From Candidatus Heimdallarchaeota archaeon (GTDB lineage Archaea > Asgardarchaeota > Heimdallarchaeia > Hodarchaeales > Hodarchaeaceae), in NCBI GenBank assembly GCA_011364965.1, contig RDOB01000004.1, positions 398,309-422,308 on the forward strand: 24,000 nucleotides of DNA. The letters are read 5' to 3'. The translations under genes and the position numbers were made by a program. This document shows, one piece after another, positions 2,031-14,394 of this stretch (position 1 is its first letter; the number at the start of each line of letters is the position of its first letter). The notes beneath the pieces are model-generated. The model had not been told where the DNA came from and made no database searches. It worked only from the letters and a program-made list of their open reading frames with translations.

Positions 2031-2666
2031 ATGGAAGTATCGGTGTGCTTAGTGAAATTTATTCCAACAAAACAGGTTAAGCCATTAAAAATAATTGTTT
2101 TAGGGGAAGGAGGTGTTGGAAAAACAACGATTTCAAAGACTTTCACTAGTAATTCGTGTTTTAAAGACGCTAGACAAACTATTGCAGTAGAATTTCATTC
2201 TATAATTTTTAATCTGGATTCAACCAAATTCAAGCTTCAAATATGGGATTTGGGAGGTCAAGAGCAATTCAAAAACATGGGAGTCTTTGGAGATTTTTGT
2301 AGAGGAGCAGATGCTGCTATCCTATGTTTTGATCTCACTGACTTATCCACTTTATTTTCGATTCCTGATTGGTTAAAGTTCATAGAAAATGACACACCTA
2401 AATTTTTAGTCGGAACAAAGTATGATCTTGCTTCAACTGAAGAAAAAACATTTGATATAACTTCATTCGAAGAAAAGTTTCATTGTGTTGATTCATATAT
2501 TTGTTCCTCTAAAGAAATTAGTTCTGTTATCCAGATCTTTAAGGGCGTTATTGACTTTCTAGAAAACGGGAAAAATAGTCTACAATTGCCTTCCAAGACA
2601 TCTGTTAAGATATCTAAACCTCTAGTATTATCACAAGGTGAGTTATATGCAAAAATTAATAGGTAA
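2031..2666 (+). CDS. Ras-superfamily small GTPase, Rab-like
   Basis: All five G motifs are recognisable: G1 'GEGGVGKT', a switch I 'QTIAVEF' (Rab-like TIGVDF), G3 'WDLGGQEQF', G4 'GTKYDL' (TKxD rather than NKxD) and G5 'CSSK'. The protein has no C-terminal Cys prenylation motif. Confidence 0.9.
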   Translation: MEVSVCLVKFIPTKQVKPLKIIVLGEGGVGKTTISKTFTSNSCFKDARQTIAVEFHSIIFNLDSTKFKLQIWDLGGQEQFKNMGVFGDFCRGADAAILCFDLTDLSTLFSIPDWLKFIENDTPKFLVGTKYDLASTEEKTFDITSFEEKFHCVDSYICSSKEISSVIQIFKGVIDFLENGKNSLQLPSKTSVKISKPLVLSQGELYAKINR

Positions 2667-3390
2667 AATGAATAATAAACATGAAAATAAGAGAATTGTA
2701 AGTGGTGTGCCAGGATTCAATCGTTTAGTTGAAGGTGGTTTTAGGGAAAATTCAGTAAATGTCGTCATTGCTGACCCTGGTTGCGGAAAATCAACTTTTT
2801 GTTGGCAATTCTGTGCTGAAGAGCCAGAAGCCCCTGCATTATATGTCTCCTTAGAACAGAATCTAGATTCAGTGCTAAGAGATTGTCGTGATATTGGCCT
2901 GAATAATTTTGAAGACAAATATAGGAGAGGTCGTTTGCAATTCCAAGTTGCGTTTAGCGAGGATTCTGATATGACCTCTGGAGAAATCGGTTTGAGATTT
3001 TTTATGTCTGAACTCCCTAAATATCTTGAAATAATCAGGGAAACAGCAGAACATTATCATGGAGGAATACGAATAGCAATAGATCCCCTTACTCCATTAT
3101 TATTGGAAATTCCAGATTTGAACCAGCAACGAAATGCCATAAATCGAATATTTACATCTTTAAGAAAGATTGGTACAGCTGTTGTTACAATAGAGAAAGG
3201 ATTTGGGGAATCTTTAGCGAAAGTGCCATTATTTCTTGCAGATTCCATTCTTGAATTAGAACATATTGGTCTTGGTGGTATATACAACCGAACACTCCGT
3301 GTTCGTAAGTTTCGAGGTTCTGCACATGCTGAGACTCCTCAACCGATTCATTTTGAAACTGGAAAGGGGTTATCGGTATATGAAATCTAA
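2647..3390 (+). CDS. Single-domain KaiC-like / RecA-superfamily ATPase
   Basis: The opening 'GVPGFNRLVEGGF' matches the KaiC/RadA-type pattern TGIxGLDxxLxGG. Walker A is 'ADPGCGKST' and the Walker B-like strand is 'IRIAIDPLT'. I chose the ATG at 2647 because AGGTGA lies at 2636-2641. Alternative starts are GTG 2638 and ATG 2668. The 2638 and 2647 starts overlap the GTPase stop at 2664-2666, and 2668 begins 1 nt after it. Confidence 0.8.
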   Translation: MQKLIGKMNNKHENKRIVSGVPGFNRLVEGGFRENSVNVVIADPGCGKSTFCWQFCAEEPEAPALYVSLEQNLDSVLRDCRDIGLNNFEDKYRRGRLQFQVAFSEDSDMTSGEIGLRFFMSELPKYLEIIRETAEHYHGGIRIAIDPLTPLLLEIPDLNQQRNAINRIFTSLRKIGTAVVTIEKGFGESLAKVPLFLADSILELEHIGLGGIYNRTLRVRKFRGSAHAETPQPIHFETGKGLSVYEI

Positions 3391-8901: not shown

Positions 8902-9309
8902 ATGGTTAAAGAGAAGATAAAATTGGTTATGCTTGATCCTCTAGCGAATGCGATGTCCTCTATAGCGAACGCTGAAGTTTTAGGTCGTAAAGAGGTGACC
9001 ATAAGGCCAGCAAGTCGAATTATAGCAAATGTCCTTCGTGTGATACAGAAATATGGAGCAATTGGTGAATTCGAAGTAATGGAAGATCTTTGGATTATTA
9101 ATGTTCAATTGCTTGGTCGAATTTCAAAAATAGGAGTAATCAAACCTCGTTATCCCGTGAAAGTAACAGATTATGTTGAATGGGAAAAAAGATTTCTTCC
9201 TGCTCGAGACATGGGGATTCTTGTTGTTTCCACATCTGAAGGTGTAATGTCCCATCAGGAAGCAAAAGAACGAAATCTTGGCGGCCGTTTACTGGTCTAC
9301 GCATACTAG
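8902..9309 (+). CDS. rps8: 30S ribosomal protein uS8
   Basis: '[14 protein letters not shown]', 'IGEFE', 'IKPRYPV', '[39 protein letters not shown]' match the conserved uS8 pattern throughout. An AAAATATA TATA-like box at 8875-8882 fits a near-leaderless transcript starting near the 8902 ATG. An alternative ATG lies at 8929. Confidence 0.95.
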
Positions 9310-9334
9310 AAACTATACAAAGAAGGTTACCTAT

Positions 9335-9886
9335 TTGACACATTATACAATTGAAAGAATCATCGAGGTTCCTGAAAATATTACTGCTACGTTGACTGAT
9401 GTACGTGGCGGCAAAAAAGTCTCCATAAAAGGAGATAAAGGCGAGTTAGAAAGAACATTTGTTAGGCTAACCGTTCAAATTACATATGAAGACAATAAAT
9501 TCATCATTCAGAGTCATTTTGGCAAAAAAACAGAAGCTTCGATGGTTGGTACGATCACTGGTCATATAAAAAATATGATCAAAGGAGTTACAGATGGATT
9601 TACCTATAAAGTTCGAATAATAACCTCTCACTTTCCTGCGACCGTAGAAGTTCAAAAAGATGTAATTCTAGTGAAGAATCTTTACGGAAGACGAGATCCA
9701 ATCCGTGTCCCATACAATCAATCATTGAAAGTCAAAGTAGAAGGAGATCTCGTAGTTATAAGCGGAATAGACATCGAAATAGTTTCTCAGACTGCTGCTC
9801 GATTAGCAGAAGCTACTCGTCTCCGTGGTAAACGTAGTAAAGACCCAACTGTATTCCAAGATGGGCTTTACGTGGTATATCCTTAA
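9335..9886 (+). CDS. rpl6: 50S ribosomal protein uL6
   Basis: 'IEVPENITATL...VSIKGDKGELERTF' followed by a second beta-rich repeat is the typical archaeal uL6 pattern. I chose the TTG at 9335, with AAGGT at 9323-9327. The ORF-track start at 9278 would overlap rps8 and add non-conserved residues. Confidence 0.9.
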   Translation: MTHYTIERIIEVPENITATLTDVRGGKKVSIKGDKGELERTFVRLTVQITYEDNKFIIQSHFGKKTEASMVGTITGHIKNMIKGVTDGFTYKVRIITSHFPATVEVQKDVILVKNLYGRRDPIRVPYNQSLKVKVEGDLVVISGIDIEIVSQTAARLAEATRLRGKRSKDPTVFQDGLYVVYP

Positions 9887-9987: not shown

Positions 9988-10062
9988 GGGCCTGTAGCTT
10001 AGCCCGGTTAAAGCGTCCGGCTCATAACCGGATGAACGTGGGTTCAAATCCCCCCAGGCCCA
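9988..10062 (+). tRNA. tRNA-Met(CAU): tRNA with CAU anticodon (elongator Met, or Ile2 if C34 is modified)
   Basis: The acceptor is GGGCCTG/CAGGCCC and the D stem GCTT/AAGC. The anticodon stem is TCCGG/CCGGA with loop CT-CAT-AA. The T arm is GTGGG-TTCAAAT-CCCCC with one U:C mismatch, and the discriminator is A. G1:C72 and the lack of a GGG/CCC anticodon stem argue against an initiator tRNA. Confidence 0.85.
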
Positions 10063-10077
10063 TCATTTGCAACAAAA

Positions 10078-10183
10078 GGCATCATAGCTCAGTTAGGTAG
10101 AGCGTCCGGCTGTTACATTCTCTCTTGATTGGGGAGATACTACAGACACCGGGTGGTCGCAGGTTCAAATCCTGCTGGTGCCG
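10078..10183 (+). tRNA. tRNA-Asn(GUU): tRNA-Asn (GUU) with a 32-nt intron at the canonical 37/38 position
   Basis: The exons fold into a 74-nt cloverleaf. The acceptor is GGCATCA/TGGTGCC and the D stem GCTC/GAGC. The anticodon stem is TCCGG/CCGGG, and the T arm is GCAGG-TTCAAAT-CCTGC. The intron spans 10116-10147. A central 4-bp helix, CTGT (10110-10113) with ACAG (10142-10145), is flanked by 3-nt bulges (TAC 10114-10116 and ACA 10146-10148). These bulges carry the two splice sites. An intron hairpin forms between TCTCTC and GGGAGA. Confidence 0.9.
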
Positions 10184-10197
10184 TTTTTATTCTTTTT
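10184..10197 (+). terminator. Two T5 tracts directly after tRNA-Asn
   Basis: The sequence is tttttattcttttt. The first tract overlaps the stop codon of the convergent minus-strand gene that ends at 10187. Confidence 0.4.
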
Positions 10198-12040
10198 CTT
10201 CATTATCTGAAGGTAAAAAGTTACTCATGACCCTTTGGATTTTCGAAAAAGGAACACCCTTTGTAGCCACTAAACTACTGACCAAAATCATATTAATCTG
10301 TTCTTCTTCTTCCTCATTTATTTTTGCATCAGCTAATTGAATATTTGCAAATTGAGCAGCTAAAATTGGAAATTCTGGATTTGTATGGGGTACTTTTGTC
10401 AGTACAATTTTAATTCCTCTTATAAATTCAATTCCTAACTCAATTGTGTTATTTGATAAAGGAACTTCAAAGAAATCAAGGTTAAATGACATTTCCTCAA
10501 CTTCAGCAACCGTTGGTTCTGTCTCGGAAGAGTAGATTGCAGTTTTCCCCAAAATTTCTAACTTTATAGCCAATTGCTTTTGTTTAAAATCACTTTCACT
10601 TCTTAGGAGTTGTTTTAAAGTCAATCGTATAGAATGGTAGTATTTAGCATCACATTCATCCCCTAAATAATTGATCGCTTGAAGAAGTGCAAGTATTGCA
10701 CGTGCAATGTCTTTTTCTGTCTCCTGATTGGAAAAAACTACCTCTCTTAAGTCCTGGGTTAGAATCATAATACTAACTTTCAGCAAATTTTCAAAAAATT
10801 GAGCATGAGTTAAATCCTCTGATTCCATAATAGATTCGTCTAATTCTGCAATTTCCTCCTCATCTATATGATAACTCTTCATCATTGCGGCTAATGCATC
10901 AAAATTATGTTTTTGTATTCCTGAAGGATATTGTTTACCATGGAGATATGCTGCCTTTAAAATAGGTGCAATTGCTGCGTTTAAACGATCCTTTGCCTCT
11001 TCTCCCTCTTTTTCTTCAAATACTGTCTCAATGAGTTCCGTGGCCTTGGACAGATGATAGAAAACAAAATCCTCTCCAAGAATATATTCTAGAGCCAAAT
11101 TAAATATCGCGCCGAACCATTTTAAATGAAATCCTCTAGAAAATGAGAAACTGGTTAGGAAAATGTTTTCTAGATGCCACATTTCCCGGGTAATTAACGA
11201 GGGATTTACATAATATCTATCAAAAACGTAATGTTTTAATTCTCTCGAAGGAGAGTAATTTCGTGAATCTACTTCTAATACCATTGAAGGAAGCCAAATC
11301 GGAATTAAAGATACAGTATAGTTAAAAGCTCGAGCAAATTCCTCTAAATCGTCAGTTCTAATCTTACCTTTAATAAAAGGATCACCAAAACTTGGAGGAG
11401 ATATAATTGCATTATTATCTCCATAACCTAATTCAATCTTATAATATTCAAGTAAGGAATCACTTAACCCTCTTTTCATCATTTCTACGTTTACGTAAAT
11501 ATCTTTTAAACAATATAAAGCCATTTGGGATATATCTGTCAAGAATTTGTAGACAATTTCCTTAGAAAAGTTCTCTGAAGGAATTAAATCAGCTAAATCT
11601 TTGAAAAAAGTTAGAGTTCTAGCTAATGAAGCTTTTAGTCGTACTTCTATCCCTCGTTGTCTTTGAACGGAATGTAAAAGTTCATGGGTTAATAAACCAA
11701 GAAATCCGTTATTATTTTCTGGATTCAATAGAGGTGTGTCAGCTTCCAGCTGAATGAAAACAAATTCTTTCTCTTCATAACCATAGGAAAATGAAGTTTG
11801 AAATGGATCTAGAAAAAAAGACCTTAAAGTTTTCATTTGGGCTTCAGGTAAATCTAATGAATTTAAAAAATTCTTTACTTCTTTAGAATCATTAATATCT
11901 GAAAAAACTATCGTCAAATTCTCAATATGTTGACAGAAAGATTCAATAATTGGATTTGATAACTTAACTAGAATTTCTGATTCAGATGGCCTTAGAAAGT
12001 CAAGAAAGATTATCTTTGGTTGTTTTACTAATTCTTCCAA
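10187..12040 (-). CDS. Uncharacterised 617-aa protein with an HExxH motif (possible zincin-like metallopeptidase)
   Basis: This is a long ORF with a TTG start. 'GFLGLLTHELLHSVQRQRG' places HExxH in the hydrophobic context typical of zincins. I recognised no other domain. The C-terminal half looks largely helical with acidic patches (EEEIAELDESIMESED, NEEEEEQ). I saw no signal peptide or transmembrane segment. Confidence 0.55.
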   Translation of the reverse strand: MEELVKQPKIIFLDFLRPSESEILVKLSNPIIESFCQHIENLTIVFSDINDSKEVKNFLNSLDLPEAQMKTLRSFFLDPFQTSFSYGYEEKEFVFIQLEADTPLLNPENNNGFLGLLTHELLHSVQRQRGIEVRLKASLARTLTFFKDLADLIPSENFSKEIVYKFLTDISQMALYCLKDIYVNVEMMKRGLSDSLLEYYKIELGYGDNNAIISPPSFGDPFIKGKIRTDDLEEFARAFNYTVSLIPIWLPSMVLEVDSRNYSPSRELKHYVFDRYYVNPSLITREMWHLENIFLTSFSFSRGFHLKWFGAIFNLALEYILGEDFVFYHLSKATELIETVFEEKEGEEAKDRLNAAIAPILKAAYLHGKQYPSGIQKHNFDALAAMMKSYHIDEEEIAELDESIMESEDLTHAQFFENLLKVSIMILTQDLREVVFSNQETEKDIARAILALLQAINYLGDECDAKYYHSIRLTLKQLLRSESDFKQKQLAIKLEILGKTAIYSSETEPTVAEVEEMSFNLDFFEVPLSNNTIELGIEFIRGIKIVLTKVPHTNPEFPILAAQFANIQLADAKINEEEEEQINMILVSSLVATKGVPFSKIQRVMSNFLPSDNEEKE

Positions 12041-12165
12041 GATTCACTCATCCTAAGAAGTAAAGCTCGAGTTTAGTAGCACTACTCCTTTATGTTAAAT
12101 AATTTAGCTTGCTCTACAAAACAGACCGAAAGAGAGAAGTTGAAACCTCAATTTGTTATTTTAAG

Positions 12166-12185
12166 TAACCAAAAATAACCAAAAA
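12166..12185 (-). repeat. Tandem 10-nt repeat giving two T5 tracts on the minus strand, just after the ATPase stop
   Basis: The plus strand reads TAACCAAAAA twice (12166-12175 and 12176-12185). The minus strand reads TTTTTGGTTA twice. The repeat begins 38 nt downstream of the stop at 12223. Confidence 0.35.
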
Positions 12186-12222
12186 CAATAGTTCCAGCTT
12201 CTTTATGAATTTAAAACCATAT

Positions 12223-14394
12223 TTACGGATTTTTATACCTATCTAGAGATAAAGGATCTATATGAGCAAGGTTATATTGCTCTTGGAGAGCTTTTACAGC
12301 GGGTTGTTTTTGAATCAGCTTGATGTCTGAAACTAATTCAGGTTTTAGATGAAATTCATTTGATTTCATAAGTGTGACTTCTCCATTTACAGAAATAATA
12401 AATCTTCTTTCATCAGGTTTTATTTTCAAAAGACTCTTTAAATGTTCATAATTCTCAAGGGATATACCTAATAGGGTTGACACTGCTCTTGGATCATGTT
12501 TAGTATAAAAAAATACCATTACACCAGCATTAGAAAGCATCGATTGATCTACCACTGGATCTGTCCCAATAAAAATCATTGAAACATCGTATGCTCTTAA
12601 TGTCCAAGGTCCACGGGCTATCATGGATCCTGATGATTTTGTATATGAATGAGGAGCTGGTATAAGTTTTTGTATCTCATCTAAAATAAAAATATTCTTT
12701 GGAAGCCCTTCTTCTTTGAATGATAATCGAGAAATGCGTAAAAAATAATATAAATATTGAAAAACTATATCTAAAAAAATTTGTCGTCCTTTTTGATCTT
12801 CCATGGCTTCAAAAGCTGATAAATCAATGATTACATTTTCCTCAATTAATTTAGTAATCGCAAAAGTTGTTTCTTTGACGCATAGACATCTCCCAATGTT
12901 TCCAAACATAAGTTTTTCTACTCGGTTTAGTACACTAGCAGAGGTACTCTCAATATAGGCGCCTCTCATATTAACCTTTTCGGGATACTCAATAAAGTGT
13001 GTAAAATCCTTAAAATTTCCCTCTTGGTTGATTGTTCTAATTATCGCTAAACGCAATAACTGTCTCATTTGAGGTGAAACTTTATCTTGATTATCATCAA
13101 AAATTTGTTCAAAAACAGAGATAACAAAGTGAATGTGATCTTCTTTGTCAATAATGTACTCACCTTGATCATTTTTGGGGATTTGGAAAACATTAATACC
13201 CCATGGAAATGAAGTCGATCCTGGTTTTAAAAAAGAAAAATCTTTGCAGAATGTGGAAATCGGGAATAGATATTCTCCTTTTGGATCGAAAATTAAGAAT
13301 TTTGAGCTTTGGGTATAAAATTCTCGAATTAAACCGAAAATAAATCTACTTTTCCCCTCTCCAGTCATCCCAAAAACTGCGATGTGTCTACATAGATCCT
13401 TTCCATTTATTGTTAATTGCTCATCTGATGTTTTGCCACTAAAAATGGGGATGCCGATATTAATTGACTGTCTCATGTTCTGTGAAAAAACCCGAGTTGA
13501 AAGTTGATATCGTGATTTGTGGGGAATAAGTGAATAACCATTCTTGGTAAATTGCCTTTGCGGAGGACTGATATACGACATTAAAGAAAAACCATCAACA
13601 ACAATGGGTAACACTAATTTTCTTTTCCGACAAATGTTCATGAAAGAAGAAATTCGATTCCAAAATGATGGATAAACTTTACTGGACAGACCATACGATG
13701 AGAAAATAACTGTAATCCTTTCTATTTTCGATCTTAAAATTTCTGAATCAGTTTCCACTAAAATGATACGGGGAGAAAACTCAAAACAACCTAATTCATT
13801 CATTATATCTTCTATTGTCGTATTATAATGCCTATCTATCCTTCCTTCTTGGATATTGAACTTAATCTGAGTTATCCTTGGCTCTTCAGGTAAAAATTCC
13901 TTCGGAATTTTCTTTTTTGATCTGAAAATAAATTGGATGAAAGCAAAATGGGGGGAATCAGTGAGAATTTCTAATAAAGCTTCCGAAAAATTGATTGTTG
14001 TACTCAATGGCAATTTAATATCATATGAACGTCCTATTAGTCCCCCAGTAAAGAATTGTTCCCTTTCTGGATCCAAAGCAAACTTATTTTGTAAGATATT
14101 CAGAACAATAGAAATTGGGTAGTTTCCCAAGCTTTGAAAGTCTGGATGTAACCCTAAATCAGTAAGAAATTGCTTTATGCTAGCAAAACCATGAGTATCT
14201 CTATTTTTTTTCAGGATTCCTTTTGTATTACAGGTTATAGTCACATATATCGCGTCTGGAGAGAATATGGAATATTCAAGACTAAAGGTGGAATGAGATG
14301 CTTTCAATGCTTGAATTGCGTTGATTTTGGCGTTTTCTGGAATGTAATCGAGGAAAACTGCTTCAGCACTATAATCCATAAAACCATCACACAT
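12223..14394 (-). CDS. HerA/FtsK-superfamily (DUF87-like) P-loop ATPase with an unassigned N-terminal region of about 330 aa
   Basis: Walker A is 'HIAVFGMTGEGKS', followed by 'FLIFDPKGEY' (the HerA/DUF87 hallmark iiDp.GEY). Walker B is 'NIFILDEIQKL'. A sensor-like segment is 'RAYDVSMIFIGTDP'. Residues 1 to about 330 matched no family I could recognise. Confidence 0.8.
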   Translation of the reverse strand: MCDGFMDYSAEAVFLDYIPENAKINAIQALKASHSTFSLEYSIFSPDAIYVTITCNTKGILKKNRDTHGFASIKQFLTDLGLHPDFQSLGNYPISIVLNILQNKFALDPEREQFFTGGLIGRSYDIKLPLSTTINFSEALLEILTDSPHFAFIQFIFRSKKKIPKEFLPEEPRITQIKFNIQEGRIDRHYNTTIEDIMNELGCFEFSPRIILVETDSEILRSKIERITVIFSSYGLSSKVYPSFWNRISSFMNICRKRKLVLPIVVDGFSLMSYISPPQRQFTKNGYSLIPHKSRYQLSTRVFSQNMRQSINIGIPIFSGKTSDEQLTINGKDLCRHIAVFGMTGEGKSRFIFGLIREFYTQSSKFLIFDPKGEYLFPISTFCKDFSFLKPGSTSFPWGINVFQIPKNDQGEYIIDKEDHIHFVISVFEQIFDDNQDKVSPQMRQLLRLAIIRTINQEGNFKDFTHFIEYPEKVNMRGAYIESTSASVLNRVEKLMFGNIGRCLCVKETTFAITKLIEENVIIDLSAFEAMEDQKGRQIFLDIVFQYLYYFLRISRLSFKEEGLPKNIFILDEIQKLIPAPHSYTKSSGSMIARGPWTLRAYDVSMIFIGTDPVVDQSMLSNAGVMVFFYTKHDPRAVSTLLGISLENYEHLKSLLKIKPDERRFIISVNGEVTLMKSNEFHLKPELVSDIKLIQKQPAVKALQEQYNLAHIDPLSLDRYKNP

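Follow-up and report, generated by a model that had tools for sequence, protein, structure and literature searches.

Adjacent genes for a HerA/FtsK/VirB4-clade ATPase and a zincin-like HExxH protein in Hodarchaeales are most likely old chromosomal neighbors

The DNA analyzed in this study was a window of 24,000 nucleotides (nt), the whole stretch at positions 398,309 to 422,308 of contig RDOB01000004.1 (assembly GCA_011364965.1), from Candidatus Heimdallarchaeota archaeon of the order Hodarchaeales. Two of its genes are the subject here, one for an ATPase of 723 amino acid residues (aa) and the other for a 617-aa protein with an HExxH motif. The open reading frame (ORF) of the ATPase lies on the minus strand at positions 12223..14394 and starts with ATG, and that of the 617-aa protein follows on the same strand at 10187..12040 and starts with TTG. 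The 182-nt spacer between them (12041..12222, minus strand) contains two T5 tracts, 37 and 47 nt past the stop codon of the ATPase gene, and an A/T-rich promoter-like stretch; a scan for bacterial-type promoters and terminators was uninformative for archaeal DNA. At the other end of the pair, 3 nt (TTT) separate the TAA stop codon of the 617-aa gene from the 3' end of a convergent, intron-bearing tRNA-Asn(GTT) gene (10078..10183, plus strand; Rfam RF00005, 58 bits). The two ORFs, the ATPase motifs, the HExxH motif, the 182-nt gap with its T5 tracts, and the tRNA-Asn 3 nt away had been listed in an original prediction made before any database search, and all of them were confirmed by translation and Rfam. 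The same prediction had proposed that the two genes form an ATPase-plus-effector module, which our results did not bear out. The gene pair is most likely not an operon, a mobile module or a defense module, and its members are old chromosomal neighbors. The explanation that we consider fairly probable is that they are two separately transcribed, vertically inherited Hodarchaeales genes for cytoplasmic proteins, a VirB4/HerA-clade ATPase and a zincin-like metallohydrolase, which are neighbors by ancestral gene order.

The linkage of the two genes was compared across 22 GTDB species loci anchored on the 617-aa gene and 10 metagenome loci anchored on the ATPase gene, to which more loci were added by exact look-up. 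Both genes and their neighbors in the window were mapped onto all loci by tblastn, and 23 loci were informative. Locus L016, which seemingly lacked the ATPase gene, was discarded because 100-N scaffold gaps flank its 617-aa gene. The ATPase gene was found upstream of the 617-aa gene and co-oriented with it in about 16 of the 23 informative Hodarchaeales loci. The distances between them varied substantially. The two genes were directly adjacent, 182–356 bp apart, in three loci (the window, L017, and L038), 2.0–2.4 kb apart in eight (L001 and L019 counted once), and 4.7–5.7 kb apart in five (L003 and L028 counted once). Only a standalone gene for the N-terminal domain of the ATPase was found in L010, 7.8 kb upstream, and no partner was found within 8.7–10 kb in L011, L022, L024, L027, L039, and L041. 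The two genes were on the same contig and distant from each other in two genomes, where 34 kb (L027/L035) and 62 kb (L024/L036) lie between them, and the distance exceeded 10 kb in four further loci. Thus, the expected synteny of the homologs held as co-orientation in most loci and failed as adjacency in all but three; the pair was interrupted in about 13 loci and unlinked in six.

The intervening genes differed between groups of loci. One gene of about 500 codons on the opposite strand occupied the 2.0–2.4 kb spacer in every one of the seven loci examined (out of eight), and four to five opposite-strand genes, including SatD, occupied the 4.7–5.7 kb spacer in every one of the four examined (out of five). 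None of the spacer genes of these seven and four loci had a homolog in the window. The gap between the ATPase gene and the 617-aa gene is a clade-specific insertion site. The ~500-aa spacer protein had no Pfam match in any of the seven loci (L001:6241-7782, L007, L008, L009, L012, L013, and L026), and the SatD-type sets were those of L003:3268-7488, L020, L021, and L025. Given that opposite-strand genes occupy the spacer position in other genomes and that T-tracts follow the stop codon of the ATPase gene in the window, the ATPase gene and the 617-aa gene are likely transcribed separately, as the original prediction had cautioned on the basis of the T5 tracts.

The 617-aa gene keeps the tRNA gene and the genes for ribosomal proteins L6 and S8 beside it in every locus, and usually also those for a helix-turn-helix (HTH) protein and the proteasome ATPase PAN. 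Where the block is broken, as in L036 and L041, the ATPase gene stays beside the major facilitator superfamily (MFS) and FIST genes, whose place in the window is beyond PAN. Therefore, on breakage, the 617-aa gene remains linked to the ribosomal-protein genes and parts from the ATPase gene. The flank upstream of the ATPase gene was not conserved between clades. Moreover, no linkage was found for the distant relatives and divergent copies examined. For the 617-aa protein, an ATPase neighbor was absent from its divergent copies P0081 and P0082 as well as from its distant relatives P0156, P0158, P0247, P0243, and P0250, and the divergent ATPase P0151 had no HExxH neighbor. These results point to conserved synteny by descent.

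Several candidates for hidden partners were rejected. A 722-aa gene near P0156 encodes a HAAS-domain protein beside PadR and is not a hidden ATPase, a partial gene upstream of P0081 is not the C-terminus of an ATPase, and the 703-aa protein next to P0151 was unrelated to the 617-aa protein. P0081 and P0082 are from assembly GCA_048886485.1, in which they are on two short contigs (L004 and L005); they were about 32% identical to the 617-aa protein, both possessed HExxH, and they may represent a lineage-specific duplication or a mixed bin. P0151, the most divergent ATPase homolog (37% identity), lies in L006:2490-7247 between a gene for a PDDEXK-HTH protein and the genes for ribosomal protein P1, an RNase, and RpoL. 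This site represents the distal end of the conserved block described above, and the 617-aa gene, L6, S8, and PAN are not found in between.

Some observations weigh against two genes that are neighbors by ancestry only. Co-orientation and proximity were kept in the ~16 loci at a protein identity of only 45–55%, most genomes retain the pair whereas no conservation at all was seen in the flank upstream of the ATPase gene, and the two families share a phyletic pattern at the level of orthologs (Hodarchaeales only). Selection for linkage or proximity of the two genes could account for this. As for the proteins, no peptidase family or solved structure significantly matched the 617-aa protein, E186, one of its candidate metal ligands, is kept in only about three quarters of the wider family, its zinc site is putative, and the substrate of the ATPase, DNA or polypeptide, is only inferred. 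One alternative is a functional pair of motor and protease, whose genes would be separately transcribed and in which an ATPase ring would unfold or translocate a substrate for the zincin-like protein, or the protease would process or regulate the motor. The co-oriented loci come from at least three clades, direct adjacency occurs in three lineages, the orthologs of both genes share their restricted distribution, and the ATPase has no other conserved neighbor, all of which favor such a pair. However, opposite-strand genes interrupt the pair in most genomes, the genes are far apart in others, P0081, P0082, P0156, P0158, and P0247 do without a DUF87 neighbor just as P0151 does without an HExxH partner, and the PAN-HTH-S8-L6-tRNA block is equally syntenic, so shared ancestry suffices to explain the proximity. 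We regard a functional pair of this kind as unlikely, with some chance left to it.

A total of 82 full-length homologs of the 617-aa protein were found in Hodarchaeales, whose identities ranged from 42 to 78%. When 1.84 billion representative proteins were searched exhaustively with a profile, just 89 relatives were identified, which included proteins of about 600 aa in other Asgard bins and many proteins of about 290 aa. Those of the latter that carry a name belong to Nanohaloarchaeota and Nanoarchaeota (DPANN). Comparison of the family alignments A1 and A4 with hhalign showed that the ~290-aa proteins correspond to residues 15–320 of the 617-aa protein (probability 100%, E 2.7e-40). The 617-aa protein is thus divided into an N-terminal zincin-like domain (residues 1–320; 11081..12040, minus strand), which is shared with the standalone ~290-aa archaeal proteins, and a C-terminal all-alpha domain (residues 321–617; 10190..11080, minus strand), which is found only in the ~600-aa Asgard forms and is absent from the ~290-aa relatives.

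No other feature of the family is as well conserved as the putative zinc-binding and catalytic motif HELLH (H119, E120, and H123; 11672..11686, minus strand; translation checked). G115, H119, E120, and H123, which form a G-x3-HExxH motif, were kept in all 81 relatives that cover the region, down to an identity of about 25%. The chance of one HExxH in a protein of this size and composition is about 2%, as estimated from the composition. The caveat that the motif may occur by chance can be dropped, because all 81 homologs possess it, and the alignments indicate that the HExxH motif is under strong constraint in this family. The search for a third metal ligand yielded candidates. The segment DIYVNVE (D180 to E186; 11483..11503, minus strand), which is in the predicted helix 160–189, is a candidate on grounds of conservation. 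Position 180, 57 residues past the second histidine, was Asp or Glu in 81 of 81 relatives, and a second candidate, E186, is at 63 residues. K179 was conserved in 79, N184 in 71, and E186 in 61 of these 81. In the alignment of the ~600-aa clade, the invariant residues were G115, L116, H119, E120, H123, Q126, R127, R129, G130, K179, N184, and E186.

No match to the 617-aa protein was found in Pfam, NCBIfam, PADLOC or PHROGs, also when 39 members of the family were scanned singly; the sole PADLOC match, to Csx19 (E 0.019), was weak and non-significant. The Pfam matches of 44 members were all below the curated cut-offs, had a best E of 9e-4, and covered about 30–60 residues around the HExxH helix. 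Zincin families accounted for most of them: DUF6782 (12 members), eCIS_core (9), PhageMetallopep (4), Tox-MPTase3 (4), and SprT-like (3). Profile searches of the PDB with A1 and A4 gave motif-level matches to M48 and VgrG2b (E 0.28–2.6), which were non-significant, as were the matches to designed repeat proteins and to the C-terminal domain of tricorn factor F3, which were dropped. The 617-aa protein is outside every family in the databases searched: neither Pfam nor NCBIfam contains its domain family or the helical extension, and nothing on them was found in the literature.

The AlphaFold2 (AF2) model of the 617-aa protein was confident, with a predicted local distance difference test score (pLDDT) of 88 and a predicted template modeling score (pTM) of 0.89. 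It contains a four-stranded sheet (strands 9–12, 41–48, 84–88, and 91–98) with intervening helices, followed by the HExxH helix (107–128), the helices 131–150 and 160–189, and an all-helical part (325–608). This layout is zincin-like in its order of secondary structures only. Foldseek gave no significant neighbor for the model, with best E-values of 0.28 for PDB and 0.31 for BFVD; the terpene synthases, designed helical repeats, and tape-measure proteins among its matches were considered noise.

Similar to the gluzincins (MEROPS clan MA; M13, M48, and minigluzincins), the 617-aa protein is predicted to have its HExxH helix after a sheet and an acidic residue on a later helix. The gluzincin motif of M13 (neprilysin) is HExxH...ExxxD, and the D/E180-x3-N184 of the 617-aa family recalls its ExxxD "glutamate helix". 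Different from the gluzincins, however, the domain of the 617-aa family comprises about 320 residues with a conserved LK[DE]xxxNxE signature of its own, and the Asgard forms are fused to a helical domain of about 300 residues that exists nowhere else. DUF6782, eCIS_core, PhageMetallopep, and SprT-like resemble the family at the HExxH helix, without membership of the family in any of them. From the motif and the model, the 617-aa protein appears to be a member of an undescribed archaeal (Asgard and DPANN) zincin-like family. For want of a significant family or structure match, the call of a metallopeptidase thus rests on motif conservation and predicted topology. Of the metallopeptidase-like effector proposed originally, the HExxH stands, as a conserved motif in a predicted zincin-like layout, while no peptidase family or fold was significantly matched.

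If it is an enzyme, H119 and H123 together with D180 or E186 would bind Zn2+, and E120 would activate water as a general base. The beta-hairpin 83–98, with its conserved S-F-S, may bind the backbone of the substrate, and the C-terminal helical domain may cap the site or select substrates. The 617-aa protein would then be a peptidase of the cytosol, with peptides or one specific protein as its substrate. Alternatively, the protein may be no peptidase and its HExxH-bound metal may serve another hydrolytic, a regulatory or a structural role. The lack of significant matches to peptidases in sequence or fold, the non-universal E186, and the large helical domain, which suggests a scaffold role, are consistent with this alternative. 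However, the absolutely conserved H, E, and H with a downstream acidic residue and a preceding sheet are the hallmark of zincins, and the weak Pfam matches were mostly to zincin families. A role other than that of a peptidase is therefore rather unlikely in our judgment.

The standalone or shorter HExxH-domain relatives are in operon-like positions, and their neighbors may provide functional hints, which were inconsistent across lineages. P0243 follows the genes for NMD3 and Methyltransf_28. P0247 (L034:7471-9674) follows a DJ-1/PfpI gene after a gap of 24 bp, and P0250 (L032:3152-6912) is near a ThiF/ThiS pair (E1-like and ubiquitin-like).

The 723-aa protein is a P-loop ATPase of the HerA/FtsK/VirB4 clade. 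Its residues 322–530 matched the Pfam family DUF87 (PF01935, the HerA central domain) with an E of 3e-14 and 54.1 bits, where the cut-off is 23.2, and all 36 family members scanned matched it, too; weaker Pfam matches were to TrwB, FtsK, and AAA_10. All three motifs were checked by translation and compared among 36 homologs. In the Walker A motif GMTGEGKS (residues 342–349; 13348..13371, minus strand), G342, T344, G347, and K348 were invariant. In FDPKGEY (residues 369–375; 13270..13290, minus strand), D370, K372, G373, E374, and Y375 were invariant. In the Walker B motif ILDEIQ (residues 570–575; 12670..12687, minus strand), E573 was invariant and D572 was conserved in at least 90%. R600 was also invariant. 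Nearly all of the 73 ATPase homologs identified were from Hodarchaeales.

The AF2 model of the ATPase (pLDDT 81, pTM 0.60) has a folded N-terminal domain, a linker, and then the ATPase domain. Foldseek found 153 matches in the PDB at E ≤0.001, and the top 50 chains listed were those of VirB4/TrwK, HerA, DndH-C, Cag-beta, TrwB, and TdpAB. The top match was the full-length TrwK/VirB4 of R388 (8rtd_O, E 3.7e-18), whose alignment comprises about 870 columns but has a TMq of just 0.38 and a root mean square deviation (rmsd) of about 20 Å. The VirB4 C-terminal domain 4ag5 aligned with a TMt of 0.72 and an rmsd of 4.4 Å, and HerA 4d2i was matched with an E of 6.5e-12. By sequence, HerA chains were the solved structures closest to the ATPase (8j4u, E 1.3e-7; 4d2i, E 1.7e-5). 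The NCBIfam scores were all below the cut-offs: CedD 46 bits (E 2.6e-12) vs. 600, the anti-phage HerA 24 vs. 800, the VirB4 model TIGR00929 21.3 vs. 643, and the HerA equivalog models NF040937 16.9 vs. 800 and NF040819 12.3 vs. 970.

Similar to VirB4 (TrwK of R388 and VirB4 of Thermoanaerobacter pseudethanolicus), the ATPase has an N-terminal domain of about 300 residues before a C-terminal RecA-like P-loop domain and possesses Walker A, DPxGEY, and Walker B. Different from VirB4, its N-terminal domain is without detectable sequence similarity to that of VirB4, no partner genes of a type IV secretion system, Ced or Ted are beside it, and it shows no membrane association. Similar to HerA (Sulfolobus HerA-NurA, Sir2-HerA, and DUF4297-HerA), it matched DUF87 above the threshold. 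However, an alpha/beta domain of about 280 residues is predicted where HerA has a short HAS-barrel, no NurA, Mre11, Rad50, Sir2 or DUF4297 was among the neighbors in the window, and no NurA, Mre11 or Rad50 was in the related loci examined. Neither the sequence cut-offs nor the partner genes of VirB4 or of HerA proper were matched, and the 723-aa ATPase forms a branch of its own, new and lineage-specific, within a known superfamily.

The unassigned N-terminal region noted in the original prediction remained so, as no Pfam family matched residues 1–320 of the ATPase or the N-terminal domain of any of the 36 family members. In the AF2 model, residues 1–281 (13552..14394, minus strand) form a folded alpha/beta domain, residues 282–305 (13480..13551, minus strand) are a linker with pLDDT <50, and the strands at 310–330 precede Walker A. 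A profile search with the N-terminal domain identified Hodarchaeales proteins only, including standalone versions of about 300 aa (P0252–P0256), which may be split genes, truncations or autonomous domain proteins. One of them is P0253 (L010:618-1529), and no ATPase domain is found within its 16-kb contig. The Foldseek alignments to full-length VirB4 cover the whole ATPase query and have a better E-value than those to the VirB4 C-terminal domain alone, with TM-scores that are no higher. The better E-value suggests that the predicted N-terminal domain is VirB4-like, which is a lead and not a result.

As inferred from its family, the ATPase would form a ring, most likely a hexamer. ATP would be hydrolyzed by K348 of Walker A and D572/E573 of Walker B, with R600 as a candidate arginine finger, and a substrate, DNA or polypeptide, would be moved through the central pore. 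Because of the flexible linker and the standalone forms, the N-terminal domain may be a detachable docking or regulatory adaptor like that of VirB4. A bolder possibility is that this ATPase and the 617-aa protein constitute a Hodarchaeales-specific ATP-driven machine, in which a ring resembling VirB4, equipped with a unique adaptor domain at its N-terminus, would act together with a metallopeptidase of new fold and the proximity of the genes would be kept by selection despite separate transcription. Such a machine is improbable; if true, it would be a new motor-plus-zincin system unrelated to FtsH, Lon, and the proteasome.

The resemblance to VirB4 also raises the possibility that the ATPase is the motor of a VirB4/CedB-like apparatus for DNA transfer or secretion and the 617-aa protein its accessory factor. 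The top structural matches are to full-length VirB4/TrwK with alignments over both domains, and the top NCBIfam match is CedD, an ATPase component of the Sulfolobales DNA-import system (PMC11868833). However, the CedD and VirB4 scores are far under their cut-offs, and no gene for a VirB2-, VirB3-, VirB6- or VirB8-like protein, another membrane protein or a pilin was found beside the ATPase gene in any locus. The genes upstream of the ATPase gene are not conserved, and both proteins are soluble. The highest means of the Kyte-Doolittle scale over 19 residues were 1.33 and 1.23 for the two proteins, and neither has hydrophobic segments. In addition, the N-terminus of the 617-aa protein, by reading, has no obvious signal peptide. 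Thus, both proteins are probably cytoplasmic, judging from their sequences, and a role in DNA transfer or secretion is very unlikely.

The setting of the pair is that of ordinary chromosomal genes. From the low-numbered end, the window contains the genes for a RIO kinase, a KH protein, tRNA-Ala, a Ras-family GTPase, a KaiC-like ATPase, FIST, MFS, PAN, an HTH protein, S8, L6, and two tRNAs, then the 617-aa and 723-aa genes, and then those for PadR, several methyltransferases, GNAT, MFS, a tetratricopeptide repeat (TPR) protein, and a radical-SAM protein. Genes for an integrase, a transposase, a toxin, restriction or CRISPR were absent from the window, no repeats were seen near the gene pair, and the G+C profile of the window shows no island boundary. 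The content of the window is cellular and housekeeping throughout, neither defense nor mobile, and no defense or mobile genes were found near the pair.

The two tRNA genes are tRNA-Met(CAT) (9988..10062, plus strand), detected by ARAGORN and Rfam, and tRNA-Asn just downstream of it, whose anticodon GTT was assigned by eye. ARAGORN missed tRNA-Asn because of an intron of about 32 nt just after the anticodon loop, and Rfam detected it. Intron-bearing tRNA genes are likewise located between the 617-aa gene and L6 in L007 (12110-12235), L011 (12065-12169 and 12187-12312), L012 (12086-12211), L019 (11863-11967), and L023 (12154-12259). Because intron-bearing tRNA genes are conserved at this place in other genomes, the tRNA junction is ancestral and no integration scar. 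An anti-phage or mobile HerA-plus-effector module (like Sir2-HerA, DUF4297-HerA, and MADS) integrated beside a tRNA gene, to which the position of the genes next to a tRNA 3' end and the weak PADLOC matches of the ATPase to mad8 (E 1.2e-12) and HerA models (E ~4e-7) might point, is extremely unlikely: these matches are confined to the P-loop, a generic region, neither a further MADS, Sir2 or DUF4297 gene nor an integrase, a transposase or a repeat is nearby, the 617-aa protein has no PHROGs match, the genes are apparently single-copy (one full-length copy in most assemblies), the tRNA arrangement is conserved elsewhere without an island boundary in G+C, and identities of 44–58% across the order at a fixed site by L6/S8 fit vertical inheritance. 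The reading as a mobile element or integration was rejected on account of the conserved tRNA arrangement and the lack of an integrase or a transposase.

Other features of the window were also recorded. The gene for the Ras-family small GTPase (Pfam Ras, E 1.5e-26) overlaps the start of the KaiC-like ATPase gene (2031-3390, plus strand), and the overlap suggests that these two genes form an operon. Ras-family small GTPases are eukaryotic signature proteins typical of Asgard archaea. The S8 and L6 ORFs as listed overlap by 32 nt (8902-9886, plus strand), and these two genes lie away from the other ribosomal-protein genes with which they usually cluster in archaea; in L001:10323-17860, the genes for PAN, an RNase, RpoL, a DNA methylase, and DUF2122 are found between S8/L6 and L15, L30, and S5.

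Literature searches returned nothing on the two genes as a pair, nor on the family of either one in Asgard archaea. With the 617-aa protein, a family of Asgard and DPANN archaea is defined that is undescribed in the databases searched and would be a new metallopeptidase family if it is active. Its structure is confidently predicted, and Foldseek gave no neighbor for it in the sets of solved and of viral structures. The ATPase represents a chromosomal and vertically inherited branch, similar to VirB4, that has no secretion-system partner. For the study of gene neighborhoods, the pair illustrates that a gene order conserved inside one order is no evidence of an operon-like module. Hodarchaeales is the archaeal order currently placed nearest to eukaryotes. 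Given that both genes are core genes specific to this order, their roles would inform the cell biology of a lineage near eukaryotes.

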